From positions 11,718,001 through 11,782,000 of the forward strand of contig NC_135262.1 in assembly GCF_964204865.1 (NCBI RefSeq): a stretch of DNA of 64,000 bases, given 5' to 3'. How positions within the stretch are numbered: the first letter of the stretch is position 1; every line of letters starts with the position of its first letter. This document shows positions 14,201 to 38,292 of the stretch, one piece after another. The notes under the pieces were generated by a model that did no database searches, was not told where the DNA came from, and saw only the letters and a program-made list of their open reading frames with translations. This stretch comes from Styela clava (taxonomy: Eukaryota). The position numbers and the translations under genes were made by a program.

Positions 14201-17200
14201 ATAACCAAAAACTTTGTGCCTGCAACTACCAGACAGCCTGTTGTAAATAAAGGTGCGGACCGGGGTTTCACCCAGTCATTTGTATCTGGCACTCCTGTAT
14301 TAAATGTCGCACACCCCTGCACTAGGCCACCACTAAGTTTAGCTAAGTTTTTCAATTACAATTAATTAGTAATCCTATTTTCAATTGTTTGCTTTGAAAA
14401 CGGCCATGTAAAATCAGTTACGCAGATGTTGGAAACTACTAAATTTGAAAGGATTGTTGTTTAACAATCAAACTTAAAGAAAGATACTGGATTTAAGTGG
14501 AACAATCGACTGACTGACTAATTTATATATTCATATAAATTTGAATTGCATCTAAAAAATTTACAGTAAATGGTTTAAAAAAGCTGATTACATAATGTAT
14601 AAATATATGAACATTAATTAAAACCATTTCATAAAAAAAAAATTTTTGATATACCTTAAATCTGCCATTTTAATATCAACGTCTAAATGTGTTTTCTCAT
14701 GTCTTAACAAATGTAACTCTGCATCAAATGCTGTTATGCTTTGATTTATCAATCTCAATAACTTGTTTCGTTGATAAACGAGTTTGATTTCATTGATCTT
14801 CGCAATCTCAATTTCAAGACGACTTTGTGTCTTTGATGCCTGAATTAGAACATAGAAATAGATTAGGTTATGCCGAACTGCGTAAAATTTAGTTTTTCTA
14901 AAAAGCACATATCGGTGGCTGCTTTAAAGAGCCCTCTTTGGGGTGAAAAAGGGTGTTGTATAAAAATGTATTCTTTTGAGATTCTATTTGAAAACATATA
15001 ACATAATACTTTTGACAAATGTCTACTTCGGCTTGGTGTACTCGAACTTTTGACACTTTTTGTGGTTTGTTCTTCTTTATCTCCTTCTGCCTCACCATCT
15101 TGTCCACCTTCCTGAATATAGAAATAATTGGTATTAGTGATATCACAATCACAATTTACAACAATGTTGTACAAATGTAGATTCGACTCGACTTGTTTAC
15201 ATATCATTGCAGGAAAAAATTAACTTTTGGAAAATATTAATTTTTCTTTCTGCACCGAGTAGCCTACCTAAAAAAATGATCATCAGGATAATATTTTGAT
15301 ATGTTCAGAGTTTCAAGACAGAAGGGCGAATGAATATTGGAATAACAATAAATTTTCATTTGAAAATAGCATTAAGAAATAGATAATCTCTAATAAGCTG
15401 GTATCTAATCATATAAAGCAATATTCTATTTAACAGAGTATTTCGATGGTAGGTTACAGAAGTATAGAAATCAAAAATATTCATTTTTCTCGATTTTCTT
15501 TTGGCCTTCATATCAATGGAAGTTTATTTTTTCCAACCAGTAAACAAAACGATGAATACGACAAACAACAAACTGGTGTCCAATTATCAGTGTTGTTAAC
15601 ACACCAATAGGCTAGCTCAATTTAAAATGCGATCCTCAACTTTAAGAATACATTTATTTTGAAACTTTGATCCGAACAGAATACCAGTTGTAGGTAAAAC
15701 AAACCGATATATTGGCGAGAAAAACTTGTTTAATTTGTTAACATAAGGCTGATAACATACAAACACTTACATCATCAAAACCACCAAACATTCCCATTCC
15801 AGATCTCTTTTTACTTGCATCAGCCAATTCTCTTTCTTTTTCTAGAGCCTGGAATTCAAGTAGAGTATCCCGGGTATAATCATATTTTCTAAATAGAAAA
15901 GGATGATTGAAAAGCAAAATTAAAGAAAAGAGGATTTGATAGTCAGTGTTCTTTTCTATTACAATGGAGATCTTACCAAGCAAACTGCCTAGCAGTTAAA
16001 GCGTTAGACTTAACCATGGTAGCATTGCAGATTACACACCTCAAATTCAAATTCCACCCTAGTTGAATTACATCTATACTGAACTACTTAAGTTGTCTAA
16101 TTATTTTGCTAATTTAATCAGTAATTCTATTCAATTCAAGAGTCTTGCTGCACACAACCACAAATATATTTCTGTAACGTTTCGTCTGACCGAGGTTAGA
16201 CTTCTTCAGACAAGCATTTTAGCAAGACTCTAGCATTCAGAAATACTCTTGAATTGAATAGAAAAGCCATTTACACTCTAGCTACAGCATCCTTGCGTTA
16301 TACGAATACGGATCCACCTGCGCAAAGTCATATAGAGCAAGGAAAGGTAGTTAGTTTCACGCTCAACCTCAACTGTTAATCAGTAATCATCTCATTATTT
16401 TTAACCATGATGAAAATATTCACTAAACGAACACAAATGAAAGTAATTTTTAAAAAAATCGCATTACATAGCAAATGCAGACACACGCAGCGCCGAAAAG
16501 TCCAACGATAAATAAAAGTATGTTGAAGCAACTCACTAGTTGGACATTTCAACAAGCGAAAAATGACAGACCAGAGAAACAATATTTTATCTTTCTCTAC
16601 CTAAGTTACATAATCACCTTTCTGGTAATTCATCTGGTTTCATTTTAGGAACTTTTGGAAGAGTTTTTCTCAATGTTCCGTTTAATTTCTTTTGAATTTC
16701 CTTCAATTCTTTCACCCATTCTTTAATGTCACCAATTCGTGATTGCTTGTTGTCTCTCAATGATGTTAACTTTGTGTTAAATTCTTTTTTTGCTTGAAAT
16801 ATCTGAGAAGATAAACATTTGATGTTCAGTTTCAACAAGCAAAATCATGAAAAAAACGCTCAAATATACACTAAGTGGTACGGGTATGCAATATGTCACT
16901 GTAACCTACTGGTATCGGATCACAGCTGAGCAGCAGATTTGAATTTACGTGTAAGCGGAACAACCTTAAATAACGCAACTTTAAAGCACACAAAACTCAA
17001 CCCAATAGAGGAAACAGAAATTTTAGAGATAAAAGAAGTAATACCCATTCAGCAAAAATGCAATTTTCAACCAATAAAAATTTCGAAGCAATTGGTCCAG
17101 TAATTGATGAAAAAAAAATTGTTTACCCAAGATAGAGAAAGGAATTACTAATATGATAATCAACAACAAAATAACAAAACAATACATAGTTCCACTTCGT

Positions 17201-20200
17201 GTCCAATAAATAATCACAAATATATTCCAATTCTCAGTTCTAATTCTTATTCATTCGAGAATCACTGCTCACATGAAAAGCATATGTATGAGACTGATGT
17301 CTGTACTAATGGTTTGAACAGAAGATTTTCTCGAACAAGACAACAATTCGTAGACAATGCTTTTCGTGCATCCTGTATTTCAATAAAATCAAGCCGCCCA
17401 AACTTTTAATAGTTCGATGAATAACAGACCTCGAAGTTGAAAATACATAAAAAAACATAATAAAATTCCTCCACAAACCAAAGACATGTTGATTATAAAC
17501 TATATCATACCAAACCCTGCAGAATCAATATCTGTGTCTTCTTTTTTTCAGTGTCCATTCGTAAATGTTCTGGTACAACATAATCAGAAGCAGTCTTCAA
17601 TTTGAAATCACCAATATTGGCTTTAGCTTCTTGAATATCTGATATATCAGCTGGATCTTCATAATTCTCAGCAGGTTTGCTCTTGTATAAATCATCCCAC
17701 TAACAAATAAGAGATTAAAAAGTTTAGTATCTGGATAGTGAAAAAATTTAGTCGCGTTTCTAAAACAAAAAATTGAAACGTGTGCAGATAAAAGTACGAA
17801 TTGTTTTTCCTAGGGCAAAATATAAGATTCTGGAGATTACACTAAGCAGTTATTTTGGGGCCAACTTGCAAGGAAACAACATCCGTAACATTGATAATTT
17901 TACAAGCGATATTTACACACAGATGTGATAAAAAAAATAGATAGGTATTAGATATTTATCCCAGCAATGAGGGAAGTCGATAAGACAGCGCAATCATATG
18001 TTGAACTACAGGCTGTCATCCAGTTACACACCCCATATCGGTATTGAAATAGTTTAAAGCAATTTCCATTTAGCTGCAGCAGTTACTTACGTGAACCACC
18101 CCAAAACGGCAAAAAGTCCAACAAATCTCTAAATATTTCCCACAAGATTTGAATATGCGGACGGGTAATCAGGAATGCGATAGCAAGCGTAAATATTAGA
18201 TTCTTATGCAACTTAAAATAATCAGCAAACCTCCTTCTGTCTTTGTTCTCTTTTCTTTTTAGCTTCTTCAGCTTTTTTTATTGCCTTTGCTACTTTTTCT
18301 GCCTGTCTACCTTGTAATGTAGTTCCTTTTTGTTTTTTGACGGCACCTTGAAGGAAGGATTGCTGGTGCTCTAGTTCTTCTAGATAAAAAAAGAAAAATA
18401 GGTAACCAATTGCTTATTTCAGATAGACTTGATGGTGGTGAAATTCATAGAGGACCAGCAAATCACCCTATGCTGAGGAGTCCAGCGATCCTTTTGCACA
18501 TAATTATTCCCCATTAGTTTAAACCAACACAGGTTAATAAGTTGCAATGACAAGCGTTTCCTACCACTTAGCATTTTCCAACTATAGTGGTAATACTGAA
18601 AAAATCACATCTACATTTAGGTATATCTGATAAACATTACTGAAGACAAAATAATACAAACCTTTTGTGCTTTGCTTTCTCCCTATATCCAAACCATCGG
18701 ATAATCTTCGACCTTTTATATTCCCTCCATCCAAACTACCGAGTCGAGCTCGTTCTGCGATATTCTTTTCAAGCTTGAAATACTCGTCAGCCAATCGAGT
18801 GATTCGATATGAAGAAACGGTGTGCTCAGAATTTAAAGCATGTAGTGTGATCCGTGGACAATCTATCATATCCGAAAATCGATTCTAAAATACAATTGGA
18901 CATAATTTAGAATGAAAATGTGAAATAAATTTATTGACAACAAATTTATTCACTGATAATGCAATTACTTTGACTTTTAAAGTATTTTATTCCTTTACAT
19001 ATTCTTCGAAATTTCGACTAAGATCGCTTACTTTTTATTACCGTAACGATCTGGCCTACACTGGCTAACGTCAGTCAACCCGAACGAAAATAGGTGCAAG
19101 GAGTCGGAATCCGAGAGTATCTGCTACATTAATAGTTGATTCAAAAATCGTTCAGAGTGGAGAGCGATAGCTTATTGCCCTTAACCTACGTTCGCTATTA
19201 TTTTCAATGACCAGGCCGTTTTATCTTTTCCTCTTTATTATGTACATTATATAGATGTAATAGTTTGTTTGTATTCCTCATTAGACTCTATCAATTTTTC
19301 GTAAGTGTCTCCTAAATTGCATTTGCTGTAAATATTTTCGATTTACTGTTTGCCTTATATTGCTTTTAGTTGCATATTCCGCCAAACTTGCCCTTCCTAT
19401 ATTTTTTCTGTGCTTTTATCTTGCTGTAGGTGTCGCTGCTTGAAGACCTTCTTAGGTCCCTCCGGCGACCCCTTCTTAGGCGACTCCGGTCACGCAAAAA
19501 CATGATTAGTACTGTAATTTATTCATTGTGTCACTTTATGTTTGAACGTGTTTTTTTGTGATGACAAAATAAACGATTGATTGATCGATAGTAAACTATA
19601 CATGGGTTTTCCAGAAGAGGCCATTGATTTAAAAAAAGACAAAAATTATATATGTCAATGCTTGGCGCATATCTTGATTGTGATTTATATTCTATATTGA
19701 TTCACATGACTTTCACAATAAAGTAAGCGAAGAAATTTTTGCCATTTTCCTGACCTTTAACTTCCTTGTAGCAAGATTCAATTTTTCTTTTTCCCATTGC
19801 ATTTCCAATCTTACTCTTTCAATTCTTTTGTTAGTTGCTTCATGCATGTTTACTCTCAATGATGGATCGAGCTCAAAATCCTAAATTATATTTTTAAACT
19901 TTTCACACAAATTTTGCTAAAATCGATAAATTTTACCAGTAAAAAAATTTTCAACCCCTTGGCCTCCCTCTCACCTTCATTCAAGGCTGATATAGAATTG
20001 ATGATTTGAGGATAGGATTTTTGAATTTATCCCAGGGGCGAAAAAAGTCAATATACTGTCTCAATCATGGCAAACCATGGCCTCTCATTCAATTACCAGT
20101 CTGTACCGGGTATGGAATTAGGTATCCAGTTTGTTTCAGATGCACAGACTTGATGGTGGAGGAAGTCAAAACCGACCAGAAGTTTAGTGAACCACTGTAC

Positions 20201-23200
20201 GGTGCGAAGAGTCCAGCAATCTTCTAGTACATAATTTATTCCTCATTCAAACCTGCGTCACCCACGCAGGGTAAGCAGAGATGCAATGAAAAGCATATTC
20301 TAAACGCTTGGAATGATGCGTTGCCAACAGCCTTTTCAAATGGCGTTTCAATCATCATTTTTATAATTTATTTAAAGCTATTATTCCTCTAAGCAGCCAC
20401 CACACAGATTCATCCTTTCACATCAAGCTATTACCAGAGCTTAATTTATGTTACAAACAACAATAAAAAGCATAACTTGTCAACTCACCTCTCGTTTCAG
20501 TCTCACATTTTCAGGTAATTGATCATTCTTTTTTATTATATCAGTAAAAATATGCCGAAGTTTTTGAATTTTTTGTCTTTCTTCAGCTTTCTTTGCTTCA
20601 GCTTCTTTCATATAACGATCATGTTCAGCTTTTAATTTTGCATCTTCAATACTGTATGCTTGTGGATCATCAATGTCATCTGCAGGAACTTCATCTGCAT
20701 CTTTCTGTAACGGGTAAAATTTTATTTCGCTGGTATTTGCTTTGTATTGCTTAAGGCTAATGAGCAAGAGATTATATAGTGTATGCAGCAGGTCGGGGAT
20801 GGTCGGGCAAGCCATGATTTAGAATCTGGAGAGACAGTTTAGCATGCTTTCATAGATATCGTGATGGGAGTCATGTTTTCAAACTCGGAATATAACATCT
20901 GAGCCAAAGTCGGGATTCTATGGTTGTAATACAACTTTGAACTTTTGATGATGAAAGATGAAGAAAATCTACAAAGCGCTCTACAAAATGACAAGTTGAA
21001 GAGAAATCGCATATCCCAACTTTTTTGTGGTCAAAATTTAATTTTTTTTTAAATTGAAAGCTGGATTTGGATTCAAAACTTGCTGATTGATTTTTGGAGT
21101 TCCAGAACTATATTTTGAAATTCTTGGAGTCTGGAGTCAGAGTTGAACTCTCTGAATGTCGATTTGCTAAGACATAAATCAGAAACAAAATTTTCAACTG
21201 AAACTACAACAGGACTGCAAACGCCAAAGGGGTCAGAAAAAAATTTCTACATCTGGAAGCCATTTCCCAGTTTATCGTATTTCAGATTGTCAGAATTTTT
21301 GTTTGAATCACGACTCGAGTCGAGTGCTTACAGACAAACAAATTCATTGTCAGTAGAATAAAACTTACTCTAGCCGAAGGCAATCTCGCTCTTTGTCCTT
21401 CCATTGCTTTATAAACTTCTTCAAACGGTAGAAAGTTATATCCATAAATATTACCATCATTACCACCAGTGAATAAGAATGCACCGTCATTACTTTCACA
21501 TATGCTGGATACGAATCCTAAAAACGAAAATATCTGTGGGTGACATGGCTTAGGGGTTAGTGCAGTATGGGAATAGTTAGCCTGTTATTTGTTTTAGGTG
21601 CATGGACTTGATGAAGAAGGAAGGCGTAACCGACCAGCGGACATAATTATTCACCTACGAAAATCAAACTTGTGAACCCACACAGGATAATCAAAGGTGC
21701 AATGGCAAGCGTATTCCTAACGCCTACCATCGATATTCCAGACTAGAACTCACCTGTCTCATTGTCATGCATGCTTAATTGCCAGTATGGTAAGGTGATG
21801 ACGTCCATTTTGAATGTTTCCATATTGATATCCTTTTCCAATGGATGCACTCTTATTATTCCATTTTGAAATCCAACCAATAGACAATGTGCATTTTGAC
21901 TATGGTAAATAGTTGTCGCAGGTATATCATTCGACTCTATATAAAAAAAAGTGCGGTGAGTCAAAAAGTGAATGAATTTGCAGCAAGACTCTTGAATTAA
22001 ATAGAACAGTCATCTTTATGCTTGCTACAGCGTTCTTGCGTTGTATGCGTATGGATCCATTTGCACAAAAGAATAAAGCAAAGAAAAATAGTCAATCTTG
22101 CGTAACCCCAACTGATAGTAGAAAGAATTGAAAAAAAAAAGATTGTGGCTGGCATTTTGAATAAACCATGTTGAAAATAAAGATTCGAGATAAAGGATCA
22201 AAGATGTTTCATTGGTAAATCCAAGCCCACCTGAGCCTTGTTTAGAGCAGTGAAGTGAAAATTCAACACCATGGAATTCAGAAAAAAATAATTGAAAAGA
22301 AGAGATATTCATTCGGAAAATCAAAGTTTTTGGCCCTTCATACACCGGTTTTTCAAAAGGCCACACAGGGATGATAATTTGAACTGGAATTTGTAAGTAT
22401 GGCACGAAAAGAGTAAATCTTGGAAATCTCTGTGAAAAGACACAGTCGGAACACATATCGTAATCATTGGCAAATTAGAAAAATGTGTATCAGATTACAA
22501 AAATCTGAAATAACTTGAACAGTCCAGTTGATGAAAACTATTAAAAATAAGTGCAATCCACGTACCTGGGACAGCAAGAGAGTTGATAGGTTCTGCAGGA
22601 GCAATGTCAGGATTTTGCACTGAGACTGCATCAGATGAAAACTCACACTCATATAAATATCCTGCATCATAATCCCCTACTGACAAAATAAACTTGTTTT
22701 CTTCGCTGTAAAAAGCAGCATGAAGTAGTGAGGGTTTTGCAGGGAAAAAGAGTGGTTCCTCCTCTTCTTCTTCCTCCTCAACATTGAGAAATTCTCTCTC
22801 TTCCTCCTCAGAGAATTCCTCACCTTGAGTAAAATACATTTTTTGTAAATATAGAGTGCAATATTTTATATACATAATTTGATAATGTATTCTGTATCAA
22901 AAGTGAATGTAACTTCACTTGGAGATGTGTCTCCTCTACTTGAGTGAGTGCATGATCTTGCTTTGAGCGTACTCTCTTTGGTATGCAGAATTTGTAAATG
23001 TAGCTGTAACTTTGCTCAGAGATGAGTCCACTTTACTTCTGAGTGAGTATATATGACATTGCTCTGAGCATATTCGTTTTAGAAAGTATTTTTTCTGTTG
23101 GCGTCTTGAGATAATCGCAATTGTTTCATCTCTACCTCTATCTTTTCTTCTTTTTAGTTCTTTCTTTTTTTCTTTCAGTTTATTTTCTTTTTCAATTCTT

Positions 23201-32200: not shown

Positions 32201-35200
32201 CCAAAACCTCAAAGAATTGATTAGCAAGATGGTCCAGTTATTGTTGTTGAAGGGTTGAACTTAATAATCATATTATGTAATTCAAAAGTCTTGCTCCACA
32301 CAAACACTAATTTATTTCAGCAACATTTCGTCTAATCAAAGTCAAAGCACAATTGCATTAATAAAGAAGGATATGGAGTTAGTGTAGCATAAACCCAACT
32401 GATATGACTCAACTATAATGGCCAGTGTAAAAATTCTCTATTTTAATGTGAGCCACCTCACCCAGGGTATAACAAATTGGGTTGGCAAAGCTGAACCAGA
32501 AAGATCCGGTCCTTTCAAAATGATTGTATATTTGTAGTAGCTTATAATCTTGCAAAGAGTAAAAGGTGTAGAAGTAAAAGGATGTACTATGATAGAACTT
32601 CTCAGCATCTAATCTCAACTAAAATCTCTCATATTATATACTGAATCTCAGCAGGTTTACATGTTATAGTGAAGTTAAATTTAGTTTTATTCATAACGAT
32701 CAATTTTAACGCAAGATGACCTAGTATTCTAAAGCATAACATTCAACTATGATGGAATCGTAGATTAAAATCTCGGGTTCAAATCCCATGCCCTGTCCTG
32801 GCTATAGTATTGTATTTCCTTACCTAAAAGCAGTTACTTGTGCAGAGTGAAAAGCGTATACATATGTCAAATAAAAACATATACTCAGTATTTCAGAGTT
32901 GCAATTGTAATCAGTAGATATGGTGTAAAAATGGCAGAGTTCCTTACGCATAAGGTGACTTCAGAATTATATTTAAACAATAAAGTTAAAACACTAAGAT
33001 TCTTACTAGATTTCCAGCAGCGAAGACAGCTGTTGGCCCAGGTAACAAACTTAAGTTGGATTTTTTCTTGCTATCATAACCAAATGAATGAAAAAGGTGT
33101 AAAATATTTTCAGGAATGCCAGATTCTGGAGAGACGTAACTTGTTGAAGCATATTCCTATATAAAATAAAATTTAAACGTTATTAGCTAGAAATATTATA
33201 TGCAGTATGATTGTATAAATGTGTTAAAATTCGAATGAGCAAGATTTCACAAATATAAAGTAGAAATTCAGAAAATGGGGATTATCAATATTAAAGAATA
33301 CATATAATTCTTTGCAATTTTCTGAGTCGATGCATCTGAAACGAATAACTTGCTAACTAATCCAAAACTGGATGTCGACTAGTAGCAGGGCATAAGGTCG
33401 TGGTACGCCATTAGATTAGGTCGTCTCATCGTCGTTTCTCTCTGATAAAAATGATAACTTATTGTTATTCTTAAATCAAATAGAGCAACGAGAAAGCCCT
33501 TGCATGTCCTTCAACCAAAACTGTTGAGTTAGTGTCTGGAGCGGGGGTTTAGAAATATTTTCAGATTATTAATGATGATAATTACCTCATAGTCATAGTA
33601 AAAATCTGATGGCTTCGAGTCATCTCCTTCTGAATAGAAAAAAAGTTGTTAATTACAACAATTTGGTTTTGAAATTCTACATAAAAAAACGTAAAAACTA
33701 AAATTTGAGCAAATTAAATTGTGAACAGTGATAGTATTAATTACGGTAGGTAAAGAAGTGCATTGAAAATTACTCAACAATGCAACTGAATTACTGGATT
33801 AGGCTTGGTGAAGCTTTTTGAATGCACAACAATTGCAAGCTTACATAAGTAGTAATAAATAATTAAATTTCAATACATTAAATTGTGTATTTAATAAATA
33901 CTATATTCAATATCAAACGAAACTTATGCATAGTTAATGACAAAAAAAAAACACATCATAACATGTTAAAAATTATTTGACTAACTACGTTATTTATATA
34001 GTTAAAATGGAAATGATCAACATAATTGAATAATATTAAGGGCAATAGCATGCAAATAACAAGTGTTACAATTAGTAACAACTAAATTATATTTAAAATT
34101 AGTACAACAGTTAGTTAACAATTAATGACAGTAATATGCATGTTGGAAAAAATGTATTCTACAATAGCCTTGAAAAATGAAAGAAAAAGATTGAAGGAGT
34201 ATGTAATAAGGAATAGGTAATGATTGTCGAAGGCCTACCAAAAATCAAGTGAATAGCAGCATGGTACATGAATTATAATGAGCAAACTAAATATTTCACC
34301 AAAATAAGAGATATTAGTAAAATTACATTGCGGTACAAGGTTGACCGAAAAAACTAACTTTTCCACTAACTGGAGATGTTAGTTAGTTAATGATTATTAC
34401 ATGTTTGCAATCTCATTACATAATTAATTAATAGAATAAAGTTATTACGATGATTATTCAAGCAAAACCACACTACAGCATGCAGTTTCAAATTCAGTCA
34501 TGCAAGTTTTACCAGCATTTTCTGTTGGTACGTCAAAAACAGGCGGTTCAATGTTTGCTTCGTCACTTTTTTCCACTGATTGTCCATTCTCTTCCTGTGC
34601 TTTTTTCTCTACTCCTGGTTTTCCATCCTCTTCTTCTGGTTTTCTATCCTTTTCCTCTGGTTTTCCATCCACTTCTTCTGGTTTTCCACCCTTTTCTTCT
34701 GGTTTTCCATCCTCTTCTTCTGGTTTTCCATCCTCTTCTTTTGGTTTTCCCTCCTCTTCTGTGTTTTTCTCTTCTTTTACAGCTTTATCTTTTTCAATTT
34801 GTTCTTCTTCCGCAGGTTGTGGTTTTTCTTCCTGTGCAGAAATCTTTTCGGACTCTTCCACAGGTTTTTCATCATTAACTTTATCTTCTTCATCTTCCTG
34901 ACTTGAATCTTTTTCTTTCTTAACTTCGGAAGCTTCTCCAGAGTCATTTTTTGAGATGTCGTCCTCTTTGGTTTCCACATCAGAAGAATCTTGTACATCA
35001 ATCTTCTCAACCACTTTCTCGTCATTTGCTTCCTCTTGATCAGTGGATGCCACTGTAGAATCAGGTTGTTCATCTTGTTTCACAGCTTCACTGACAATTT
35101 CAGACTTTTCAGCTTCTTTAACATCCTCATCTTTTGTGGATACTTCTTGTTTTTCTTCAGTTTTAGAAGAATTCTGCCCTTTATCTGGTTCTACCGCATC

Positions 35201-35644
35201 TTCAGGCTTCTCTGAACTCTGAATATCTGGTTGTGGAGAATCCTTTGACACAGTATTTTCATCCTCGTGTACACTTGGAAGTACATCAACATGATTCTCT
35301 GCACCTTCTTTTGCTTTATCCTCATCCACCTTTCCATCTTGTGTCTGGTCTTCAGTTTTTATTGAAACCTCGTTAGAATCTTCTGTAGTTTTCATCTCAT
35401 CATCTTCTGTAGTTTTTATCTCATCATCTTGCTTTACAGGAGATTCTTCTGGTATTGGGTTAGCATCACCAGAAGGAGAATCTTCTAATTTTTCAGATTC
35501 ACCTTCATCTTGTTGCTCAGTAGTTGGTGCTGGAACTTCAGTCTCTCCAGTAGGAGGGTCAGCGGAGTCTTCATTACCTGCAGCAGGAACAGTTACCACA
35601 TCATCTGTTTTAATCTCACCTGTTTGATCTTCATTCGAAGACAT
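8285..35644 (-). CDS. CFAP44: Cilia- and flagella-associated protein 44 (WDR52): WD40 repeats plus long C-terminal coiled coil, 37 coding exons, ~2127 aa
   Basis: Exons in transcript order: 34513-35644, 33586-33629, 33007-33156, 31741-31818, 31165-31267, 30138-30271, 29591-29673, 29062-29233, 27846-27953, 27217-27447, 25937-26134, 25381-25485, 24592-24774, 24001-24113, 23136-23260, 22566-22823, 21754-21936, 21369-21517, 20489-20704, 19755-19880, 18662-18884, 18231-18379, 17511-17699, 16618-16802, 15771-15888, 15010-15111, 14655-14839, 13601-13715, 12851-13034, 12339-12463, 12092-12268, 11530-11726, 10700-10802, 10153-10275, 9905-10039, 8927-9016, 8285-8377. All introns are GT-AG and the lengths sum to 6384 nt (2128 codons including the stop). 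Recognisable CFAP44 segments: [96 protein letters not shown], and the C-terminus [19 protein letters not shown]. Confidence 0.95.
9316..9774. mobile_element. hAT (Charlie-like) MITE
   Basis: Imperfect TIRs CATTGATTTCCAACC / GGTTGAAAATCTCTG, internal GTGTGCCGTG/GTGTTCCGTG motifs, 8-bp TSD TCCTAATG (9308-9315) / TCCTAGTG (9775-9782). Confidence 0.7.
12613..12850 (+). mobile_element. SINE family A copy whose tail abuts the donor of CFAP44 exon 29
   Basis: The body matches family A. The tail aatcctatcctaatatcctac ends exactly at the intron/exon boundary (12850/12851). Confidence 0.8.
13945..14441. mobile_element. Degenerate hAT-type MITE
   Basis: Left end CAGTGGTTGCAAACCTGCAGCCCGCGGG; right end GTTGGAAACTACTA. 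TSD not clear. Confidence 0.45.
16126..16326. mobile_element. Non-autonomous Penelope-like/retrozyme-like repeat: two partial copies in inverted arrangement
   Basis: ttctattcaattcaagagtcttgct (from ~16126) is the reverse complement of agcaagactc...ttgaattgaatagaa (16221-16263). The same family occurs at ~21980-22078 (+), ~32275-32345 (-) and ~37598-37758 (-). Confidence 0.6.
16172..16213 (-). ncRNA. Minimal type I hammerhead ribozyme motif within a dispersed repeat, in CFAP44 intron 24
   Basis: The minus strand reads UUGU-CUGAAGA-A-GUCUAACC-UC-GGUCAGAC-GAAA-CG-UU-ACAG. This gives the CUGANGA core, a stem II hairpin, GAAA, palindromic AACGUU in place of stem III, an NUH site, and stem I UUGU/ACAG. 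Confidence 0.7.
19215..19590 (+). mobile_element. Probable LINE (CR1/L2-like) 3' end remnant
   Basis: T-rich tract, a GC-rich stem-loop-like stretch, then AAATAAAC followed by a (GATT)n tail at ~19568-19590. Confidence 0.35.
20009..20325 (-). mobile_element. SINE family A, near full-length copy in CFAP44 intron 19
   Basis: Runs from the gataggattt tail through ...aacgcttggaatgatgcg (the head, reverse complemented). Confidence 0.8.
21980..22078 (+). mobile_element. Partial copy (3' part, no ribozyme) of the hammerhead-associated repeat
   Basis: gcagcaagactcttgaattaaatagaa...gctacagcgttcttgcgttgtatgcgtatggatccatttgcacaaaa aligns by eye with 16221-16326. Confidence 0.65.
22908..23075. repeat. 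Diverged tandem duplication (~97-bp period, 2 units) in CFAP44 intron 15
   Basis: tgtaacttcacttggagatgtgtc...tgagtgagt...ttgctttgagc recurs as tgtaactttgctcagagatgagtc...tgagtgagt...ttgctctgagc. Confidence 0.65.
24790..25345. repeat. Degenerate low-complexity ATGAGT/GTGAGT repeat tract in CFAP44 intron 12
   Basis: Dozens of (A/G)TGA(GT) words with strong strand asymmetry (G/A/T-rich on +). The overlapping His/Tyr/Ser-rich ORFs are by-products. Confidence 0.8.
28223..28519. mobile_element. hAT MITE (CAGGGCTACTCAAC TIR family)
   Basis: TIRs CAGGGCTATTCA / TTGAGTAGCCCTG; perfect 8-bp TSD TCCTAGGT at 28215-28222 and 28520-28527. A sister copy lies at 52075-52367 in the opposite orientation. Confidence 0.85.
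30493..31071. mobile_element. Nested MITEs: outer CAGGGGC(A/G)TAGCCAG...CTGGCCTCGCCCCTG element with an inner TAGAG...CTCTA element (30497-30857)
   Basis: Outer TSD GGTCCAGA at 30485-30492 and 31072-31079. Inner TSD CAGACAGG / CAGTCAAG (6/8 match); the inner element has CCCGA/TCGGG subterminal repeats. Confidence 0.7.
31847..32082. mobile_element. Foldback MITE with ~80-bp TIRs, GG...CC termini and 8-bp TSD
   Basis: GGTGCTCCCGAAGTATGCGAACCAAGATGGCGGACATCGGAA... / ...TTCCGATGTCCGCCATCTTGGTTCGCATACTTCGGAAGCCCC; TSD ATTTAATA at 31839-31846 and 32083-32090. Confidence 0.9.
34513..35644 (-). CDS. CFAP44: CFAP44 first coding exon: large acidic, low-complexity (E/D/K-rich) N-terminal region
   Basis: Part of the 396-aa ORF 34454-35644. 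A donor (GCTG|gtaaaa) after 34513 joins in phase 1 to the 44-nt exon 33586-33629. An acceptor-like tttctttctcaaaag| lies 6 nt upstream of the ATG. Confidence 0.85.
34616..34760 (-). repeat. Coding tandem repeat, 21-bp unit x ~7 (EEEDGKP-like heptad)
   Basis: The + strand repeats tggttttccatcctcttcttc. The protein reads [48 protein letters not shown]. Confidence 0.9.
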
Positions 35645-37176
35645 CGTACTCTTTTGAGAAAGAAATATTCAGTGCTGCATGGATATGAAGTTGTGAAGAA
35701 AACAAAAAATGTACTATGAATATTAATTAATAACTGAAACAAAATCCTTATTTTAAAAGGTAAAAGCTTCAAATTCTTAGATTTAGGTCATGCAAGTGGC
35801 ATAAAATTGAATAATTTTGGTCAGTGATCCCAAATTAACTCTTGTGTACAAGCAATAATATAGAAATACCACTACCAGCTGAGTTGGTAATTAGATGAAG
35901 GTATAGTCCATAATGGTTAACTATATATGTTTAAACAGTATTGACTGCTTCACAGTTTACACTGAGATAGTATTTTGAGATGATTTTTAAATACGACTAC
36001 TACAAAATTCTAAACTATTTTAAATAATGTATTAAATAGTTTGAGTACACATATATTGAATGTTTGTAACCTGTGGTTATTAACTAGATATAAGTATAAG
36101 TTGATTTCAAGAAGCTTCTTAAACATTAGATAATTAGGTACATCAAAACAAAACCCATAAATTTCTTAATTGCTTCTACGAAAATGAAGGAAATTCATTT
36201 AACACTTAAAATGCTTCAAATGACATGGGTTCTGTTTTTTGGGTCCACCTTTATGCCTTGTCCCCACTAGCTGTTTTGTCTTGGCAAGTACAAATTGCAG
36301 GAACCCCACCTTCAAAAATTTTTGGTCTGCCCATGCACCTGGCATTCATATCAATAAAGGCTCTATTCCACTTCAGAAAATAGTCAATTAGTATTTATAT
36401 ATTTTCAGTTCTACATTGTAAAATCTTCTTCCTATATTAAGGTAATATGTGTCCTCAACTCATATATATTACCCACACATCAGTTGCTTCTTAGTGTATT
36501 TGATTCAAATAATTTATTGAAAAAATGAAATGATGTCATTTGTGAACAAAATGCATAAGATTTGTAAGTTACCACTATTAATTTCTATAGTTCATACACA
36601 CGAAAGATAATACACTCTCGTTTTATTGTTGTGTTATTTTGGTATTCCATTGTTTATAAGCCAAGGATGATATCTAGTTTACAACATTTGTAAGGTTTTT
36701 CATCCTTCTAGCTTTCTTTTTTTTTTATTTTAGAGTCATTAATTTGGCAGTATTTGTCATTTCCATCACAGAGTAGTGTCAAAAGTAGAATAGTAGGTTA
36801 GACCTTAGTACTGGTATTAGTAGTAGTATTTTTTTCATATATTCATTTGTTTTTGTCTGTTTTTTTCGCCCAAATCGGTAATGGCTGAATGTTGCAGTCA
36901 AATTCTATTAGAAAATAGAAAATGAAAAAAATAGAAAGCGTCAAAATCTTTTCAAGACTATAACTTATGCAAAATGTCAACATGATTCAACCACTCCGCC
37001 AGGCCGAAAAGGAAATGCAAAATTATTCCGACTATACATCTTAGTCTGATATATGTACAGTTACATTATTGCAGTCATAGAAACTGCCTGCGAATTTGCA
37101 CACTAAGGCAAAGACATTGTACTGCAATATCAATAAACTGAACACAACACACGGGAAACTTTACTGCGAGGTGAGT

Positions 37177-37190: not shown

Positions 37191-37597
37191 GAAAACTCAA
37201 ACATGAAGCGTTTTCTCGACCTTTGATCCCAAATATTAAACTTCAAGCTAAGGATGGAATTTCGAAGCCAGCTTTTTACAGTATCAGGATATCCCGGGAC
37301 TGATCCGTATAATCCTGGGATTTTTCGGATTAAGTAAAAGATTGAAACAACTTGCATGGCAATAAAATCATGTATTTGTATTTATTTCATGTAATACAGA
37401 CGCAGAAATGTTAGAGCAGTGGTTCTTAACTTTTTCTTTTTTTATATATATATTTTACCCCTTCAGCAAATTTGGCTACGAGATTTACCCCCAAATACAG
37501 ACATTGGTGATCATTTATTAAAAATTTGTCAAGCAAAGTATAAAGATGTGGTATCGATTGGGTTTCTACAATACTACCAGTAACAACTTCTACGTCT

Positions 37598-37758
37598 TCT
37601 ATTCTTTTGCGCCGGTGGATCGGTATGCATATAATGCAAGGATGCTGTAGCAAGAATGAAGATAACTATTCTAAGTGATTCGAAAGTCTTGCTGCGCACT
37701 AACACAAATATATTACTGTAACGTTTTGTCTGACCAAGGTCAGACTTCCCCTGCAGAC
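37598..37758 (-). mobile_element. Longer copy of the hammerhead-associated repeat with a mutated core
   Basis: Contiguous match to both halves of the 16.1-16.3 kb repeat. Stem II is perfect (GTCTGACC-TT-GGTCAGAC), but the core reads CUGCAGGGGAA and C-AAAA in place of C-GAAA. Confidence 0.65.
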
Positions 37759-38292
37759 ATACATAGTTCAACATTGAGTTGTGCTTTAAATTTTGGTTCT
37801 AGGAAAATTCACCGCAGAAAATTCTCGCCGCATAGAAAAATTAGCGCATGAAAAATCGCTTATTTAAAAAAGATCCGTTATTTAAAGAGCATACCCTAAC
37901 CCTATAAACCTAAATGTTTTTATCACATATACTTGTTTTACCGTAAATATATACTAGCCTACTACGTTTTACAATACTTGTTTTGGTTTTGCTCGCCGTT
38001 CCATATTACGCTCTTATTGGACACGTCCGTGTACATAACGATCGTTCTAATATCATGTTGTTGTTCTTGATATTTGTCTCCTTCGTCGTGATAAATTTGC
38101 ATTCTTCTTCGAATACTGGACCAATTGGATAGGATAGGATTTACATATTTACCCCGGGGGAGTGGAAAGCCAATAGGACGGTTCATTCATATGGCGAACC
38201 ACGTCCTCTCGTCCCGTTACCTGTCCAGGTCGGGTATGGGATTAGTTAGCCAGTTATTGGACACGTAGTGGACATAGCGATCGTTTCAATAT

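Follow-up and report, generated by a model that had tools for sequence, protein, structure and literature searches.

A Penelope-like element hammerhead relic, likely inactive, in an intron of the Styela clava CFAP44 gene

Does a hammerhead motif that keeps all of its catalytic letters, and that lies on the sense strand of a host intron, amount to a live ribozyme? The question is raised by positions 16172..16213 (minus strand) of a 64-kb stretch of Styela clava DNA, the whole of which was analysed and is referred to here as the window. The original prediction had described a hammerhead with an intact core at this site, and the sequence reads as claimed. On the minus strand, the motif consists of UUGU (16213-16210), CUGAAGA (16209-16203), an extra A (16202), the stem II 5' arm (16201-16195), a 4-nt stem II loop (16194-16191, from sequence and folding), the stem II 3' arm (16190-16184), GAAA (16183-16180) followed by CG within an ACGU palindrome, U16.1 (16177), U17 (16176), and ACAG, the 3' strand of a 4-bp stem I (16175-16172). 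A single A-C mismatch in stem II (A16197-C16188), the replacement of stem III by a palindrome (here ACGU), and a predicted cut between 16176 and 16175, after GUU, had all been described and agree with the sequence. An eighth stem II pair around a 2-nt loop had also been suggested, but folding favours the 4-nt loop as the better reading.

The letters of the minimal type I hammerhead of Penelope-like elements (PLEs), the min-HHR, are all found in the window copy: CUGANGA, GAAA, UH, an extra base after A9, G10.1-C11.1, and palindromic 15.2-16.2. Stem II has six of its seven pairs and is predicted not to form. A minimal-hammerhead descriptor, a check that the original prediction had proposed, matched once in the window, at the claimed site (16172-16213), and on 200 Markov sequences of 64 kb it gave no strict and 11 relaxed matches. 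With no strict match in the controls and a single match in the window, the motif is not a product of chance. The Rfam scan found no hammerhead match for the window copy at E values up to 10; this silence is uninformative because an intact family copy likewise gave none, and the Rfam hammerhead models are blind to the PLE minimal form. Other Rfam matches in the window all fell below gathering scores.

The host gene had been named as CFAP44 on the minus strand, and this was confirmed. Two exons in the window match solved CFAP44 chains (E 7e-12 and 1e-16), and ascidian CFAP44 proteins chain across 31-32 exons, from 33171 to 8288. The host intron (15889..16617, minus strand) is 729 nt long with GU..AG ends, and it lies between an upstream exon at 16618..16802 and a downstream exon at 15770..15888, both on the minus strand and both placed by the splice joint and protein comparison. 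Its numbering as intron 24 is plausible within one, with 23 coding exons counted upstream. The joint 15888/16618 across the intron is present in three of the four transcript-type runs (X2, X4, and X9), from three studies; these runs are assembled contigs, whose RNA nature is guessed and which show canonical exon joints. The intron is spliced, and the contig joints are compatible with cleavage of some fraction of the pre-mRNA. A homologue search with exon 16620-16802 gave no match, and Pfam returned nothing useful on single CFAP44 exons.

The hammerhead sits in a 250-nt truncated, inverted pseudo-LTR (pLTR) fragment with a 12-nt target-site duplication. The duplication is a direct repeat on the plus strand, with a left copy at 16114..16125, whose edge is blurred by microhomology, and a right copy at 16376..16387. 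Between them lies an inverted pLTR piece of 96 nt that carries the hammerhead (16126..16221, minus strand, 96% identity to element L031), followed by a 16-nt inversion junction made of a short duplicated piece and filler (16222..16237, from comparison with L031), and by 138 nt of the element 3' end in its own sense (16238..16375, plus strand, 92% identity to the L031 3' end). The latter includes a tail of ~112 nt (16264-16375, plus strand). Repeat comparison within the window also revealed the inverted arms at 16125-16150 and 16238-16263. The inverted piece stops ~52 nt beyond the cut site, and its orientation places the hammerhead on the CFAP44 sense strand. For the junction we infer an origin by template switch.

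A genome search with the intron gave 75 matches (figures from 40 scored of 1,878 candidates), all of which, apart from the self-hit, are restricted to ~16124-16382. The dispersed homologues show the same inverted-plus-tail anatomy, and the inner junctions vary between copies of the element. Candidate target-site duplications of 7-17 nt, the short ones of which may be chance, were found in 15 of the 16 loci examined. The insertion was found in contigs from two DNA samples, one of them possibly related to the window's own source; X11 record 11 and X12 record 21 run across its right edge, and X13 record 28 crosses its inner junction. It is not a rare allele. No empty allele was seen among the joints listed, in contigs, which drop variants. 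The motif is not a host invention.

Elsewhere in the window, three further decayed pLTR scraps belong to this family group, at 37547-37772 (minus strand), 32274-32346 (minus strand), and 21979-22119 (plus strand). The hammerhead core is broken in the scrap near 37750, the scrap near 32300 has lost the 5' half and retains only the 3' half, and the third scrap is tail only. No second intact hammerhead that could serve as a dimer partner is present within the 64-kb window.

Longer copies of the element continue into an open reading frame (ORF), with variable truncation points. In sister copies recovered by a protein search, the open frames span 940-977 codons, and the intact sister ORFs (L061:4339-7218, L062:1950-4769, L064:2047-4977, and L076:5417-8296) are 927-938 aa from the first Met and encode a reverse transcriptase (RT) and a GIY-YIG endonuclease (EN). 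A hammerhead is found on each side of the ORF in L061, L062, L063, L064, and L076, 3.4-3.7 kb apart, and inverted hammerheads are found in L061, L063, L064, and L076. According to Pfam, RVT_1 is present in two of three sister ORFs (E 2.7e-10 and 7.8e-10) and GIY-YIG (PF01541) in all three, at 24.0, 22.5, and 24.8 bits, one of them just under the cut-off of 22.6. All long ORFs contain R[YF]IDD, the L061 ORF has a C-x4-C-xx-C linker upstream of the endonuclease, and a protein labelled Styela clava is 99% identical to one sister ORF. In L031, a subfamily copy of the window's kind, the same ORF is broken by stops, and Pfam found no RT or EN match on the L031 ORF pieces. The CX2-5CxxC linker before GIY-YIG is described as a mark of the Neptune and Nematis clades in the part of Craig et al. 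2021 (PMC8557442) available to us. Judged by its sequence, the parent is an EN+ PLE with a Neptune/Nematis-type linker.

Intact ORFs whose two pLTRs carry identical hammerheads are found in at least three PLE subfamilies, which may be recently or currently mobile.

The family resembles EN+ PLEs of the Neptune/Nematis type, as far as these are described in the available parts of two sources (PMC8557442; Arkhipova et al. 2013, PMC3846280), in having a single ORF with RT then GIY-YIG and a CX2-5CxxC linker, direct and inverted pLTRs, 5' truncation, and an optional tail at one end. Target-site duplications are given there as ~8-12 bp, and that of the window is 12 nt. Unlike those elements, for which a tail of 30-40 bp is given, the family here, as seen in the window copy, L031 (1499-1613), L061, L063, and L064, has a tail of ~112-115 nt, or of ~125-134 nt in subfamily D. 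No conserved fold was detected in the tail, with z-scores of -0.6 to +1.5 for four family copies in single-sequence analysis and an unfavourable covariation term in the alignment. In titles, abstract openings, and the passages available to us, we found nothing on this Styela clava element or on a tail this long.

A short, non-coding insertion with inverted arms might instead be the solo unit of a non-autonomous retrozyme or MITE and no direct PLE fragment, and retrozymes are reported as PLE derivatives in the accessible text of 10.64898/2026.07.22.740005. This identity is largely refuted by the absence of a tandem array at the site, by copies that run into the RT-EN ORF with variable truncation points, and by inner junctions that differ as in independent retrotranspositions and not as in one amplified unit; the length of the duplication varies as well. 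We consider it extremely improbable, and a fragment derived directly from a PLE is the preferred source of the insertion.

How such a fragment could come to face the host sense strand is suggested by the ends of its relatives. In subfamilies A and B, the ends of copies cluster at two fixed points, ~47-57 and 162-169 nt beyond the cut site, where subfamily A values are limited to 166 by the reference and extra bases are read from flanks. Two fixed genomic end points downstream of a hammerhead that likewise lies in the pLTR are also described for PAc Poseidon of the green anole (Frangieh et al. 2024, PMC11167929), and in the accessible part of that study two RT start sites define the tail. By analogy, the RT of the present element would start copying at two fixed points, ~52 and ~165 nt past the cut site; a template switch would join two short RT products head to head, and the product would be inserted with the 12-nt duplication. 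It would then be the head-to-head inversion, and not selection, that makes the motif face the CFAP44 sense strand. The two systems differ in other respects, since PAc Poseidon has an ORF that starts within stem II and a tail of 30-40 bp (PMC11167929, in the part available), while the first Met of the sister elements here lies ~200 nt past the cut site; the linker type differs too.

At the level of the family, the hammerhead is abundant and well kept. A relaxed hammerhead pattern gave 1,038 matches in the genome (377 Mb), against 6 for the reversed control. Core conservation and stem covariation among genomic copies, which the original prediction had named as a check, can be read from an alignment: the core is unchanged except at N7 in nine of nine aligned copies from several subfamilies, the window copy included, and pairing is kept in 95.7% of cells, with two-sided change in four of 13 pairs, a level that none of 500 shuffles reached. 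The divergent copy L073 accounts for all four two-sided changes, and relatedness is not considered in the shuffle control; support from covariation thus appears real but thin, and the family hammerhead looks functional as judged from the alignment.

L073:1146 (minus strand) is itself a PLE hammerhead of divergent sequence: stems I and II both show compensatory changes, AGCU takes the place of the ACGU palindrome, and the cut triplet is CUC.

The assignment to the minimal type I hammerheads of Penelope type holds, given the RT and GIY-YIG parent, the pLTR location, and the published min-HHR design (Cervera and De la Pena 2014, PMC4209133). As described in the accessible part of that survey, metazoan PLE min-HHRs follow the type I order and lack helix III; they have a palindrome at 15.2-16.2, a single unpaired base separating A9 from G10.1, a G10.1-C11.1 pair, a helix II of 7-8 bp, a helix I of 4 bp, and a pLTR location, as here. 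The extra nucleotide between A9 and G10.1 had already been called natural. Thousands of mostly single, truncated copies are reported there, with which the present family agrees, and no ascidian family is named in that part of the survey. The type is already known, and the window copy likely adds another decayed member. That the family is built for dimer cleavage also stands, with hammerheads in both pLTRs, a covarying palindrome, and the published design (PMC4209133). In the available parts of the sources, a single min-HHR showed no cleavage and dimers little (PMC4209133), and the anole PLE hammerhead cleaved only with PLE protein (PMC11167929). Cleavage in the parent RNA would require a dimer formed through the ACGU palindrome and, probably, the help of protein.

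The window copy departs from its family in stem II. At 16197 (minus strand) it carries a private substitution, A for the family G, which creates the A-C mismatch with 16188; this fifth stem II position is G in 56 of the 57 matches to the tight (exact) pattern and A only in the window copy. The same A is common to none of 19 aligned subfamily copies, and with the relaxed pattern it occurs in four among the 100 matches listed, all of them further damaged. The window 42-mer is otherwise identical to the subfamily copy L031. Private bases of the window copy include 16158 and 16156 besides 16197, and the private changes of the insertion amount to 11 substitutions in 234 nt and a 2-nt insertion.

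Nearest-neighbour folding gives the stem II hairpin a predicted -5.9 kcal/mol in the window copy versus -12.3 kcal/mol in the subfamily copy. In the predicted winning alternative, UUGUCUGA pairs with the stem II 3' arm, and the resulting 8-bp helix of 16213-16206 with 16189-16182 (within 16182..16213, minus strand) would sequester CUGA. At four context lengths, the predicted stem II probability is at most 0.01 for the window copy versus 0.98-1.00 for the subfamily copy, and it is predicted to be below 0.01 in the context of the whole intron. Longer contexts pair CUGA partly and leave stem I unformed even in intact copies, and family copy D is predicted to lose stem II in the longest context. 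Since intact copies are also partly mispaired in the model, only the stem II contrast is informative, and the model may understate activity for all copies. The active-form dimer was computed to lie 9.1 kcal/mol above two monomers for the window copy versus 1.9-3.5 kcal/mol for five family copies. The suggestion that the near-palindromic stem II could promote dimers loses its force, as this is a trait of any short-looped hairpin and is weakened in the window copy. With its private helix II mismatch and predicted misfold, the window copy is unlike the min-HHRs described in the accessible survey text (PMC4209133).

Because the private stem II mutation is predicted to misfold the RNA and no dimer partner is at hand, the window copy is likely inactive. 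Very probably, then, the locus holds a relic of a PLE pLTR hammerhead, left in the CFAP44 intron by a truncated and inverted 250-nt insertion. The idea of a live self-cleaving RNA is not upheld, given a private mutation predicted to pair the core and the lack of a partner hammerhead in the window. The main counterpoint is that all core letters and stem I are intact in the window copy. After insertion, it would have drifted neutrally, and at a divergence of 4.7% the 13 core positions would all escape change with a probability of (1-0.047)^13 = 0.53; with about half a chance of an untouched core under neutral decay, the intact core needs no selection.

The proposed effect on CFAP44 splicing or level fares no better, since the intron is spliced and the intact core fits neutral decay. 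Host domestication of the ribozyme as a regulator of CFAP44 splicing or level would agree with the sense orientation in an intron of an expressed gene, with the intact core, and with the sharing of the insertion among samples. It would also have a precedent in the conserved amniote intronic hammerheads of RECK, CTCL, and DTNB (PMC6155905), which share with the window copy a type I core in a host intron. However, in the available part of that source the amniote motifs are conserved across species and are drawn with tertiary contacts, whereas the window copy is without helix III and without a partner hammerhead, and lies in a transposon fragment with a target-site duplication. The sole change in the motif breaks the structure, while among subfamilies change mostly preserves pairs. 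More than 1,000 motifs are spread over 377 Mb, so that chance should place some of them in introns on the sense strand, and three other decayed family scraps lie in the same window. Domestication is accordingly rated as very unlikely.

The decayed relic could still be cut slowly as the substrate of a heterodimer, in which CUGA, stem II, and GAAA come from an intact family RNA that pairs with the relic's ACGU-U-ACAG, perhaps assisted by PLE protein. With the catalytic parts taken from an intact partner, the stem II defect of the window copy would be irrelevant. In favour, the substrate half (16180-16172) carries no mutation, the transcript-type runs contain family sequence, intact sister ORFs exist, and dimer architecture and protein assistance are published (PMC4209133 and PMC11167929, in the parts available). 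Against this, the trans complex has only 4+4 bp and a predicted -12.8 kcal/mol versus -12.3 kcal/mol for the enzyme strand alone, a gain on binding of ~0.5 kcal/mol, and the stem I 3' strand is predicted to be mostly paired in the intron context. Pre-mRNA is, moreover, short-lived and scarce. For the anole PLE, no RNA-seq reads ended at the cut site in the data described in the accessible part of PMC11167929. We regard slow cutting in trans as unlikely, and as less likely still the broader proposal that PLE scraps in introns are regular trans targets, such that a protein-aided intact hammerhead would cut CFAP44 pre-mRNA via ACGU-U-ACAG whenever the element is expressed. If trans targeting were true, the cutting of hundreds of host introns would rise and fall with transposon activity, and transposon expression would be linked to the fate of host pre-mRNA.

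As a single decayed PLE hammerhead, the window copy matters little and fits what surveys have reported; it illustrates clearly that a complete set of catalytic letters is no proof of a live ribozyme. More useful is the family that came to light with it, which has subfamilies with intact ORFs, compensatory changes that extend to the dimer palindrome, and a tail roughly three times as long as those published. Modest leads come from the tail length and from the subfamilies with intact ORFs, and the family could be used to test the anole two-start-site model in Neptune/Nematis-type elements.

Some further arrangements were seen along the way. At L031:5020-5110, the near-full-length subfamily A element adjoins a diverged pLTR that is older and whose hammerhead has decayed, a sign that the element may have inserted into earlier copies or next to them. 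Five hammerhead matches occur in 2.4 kb at C1:6694453-6696793, ~580 nt apart and in both orientations; this cluster may reflect a PLE nested in inverted orientation or else an array like that of a retrozyme. On C10 and C13, pairs of hammerheads on one strand had been candidates for full elements and were rejected, as they are really host segmental repeats. Around the host intron, other repeats lie in nearby intron sequence at ~17069-17207, 16877-16978, 15500-15550, and 15959-16060, with raised contig depth. The likely first coding exon of CFAP44 (34454-35668, minus strand) is an acidic, low-complexity open frame of ~400 codons that contains a 21-nt tandem repeat and far exceeds the Phallusia protein's N-terminus in length.
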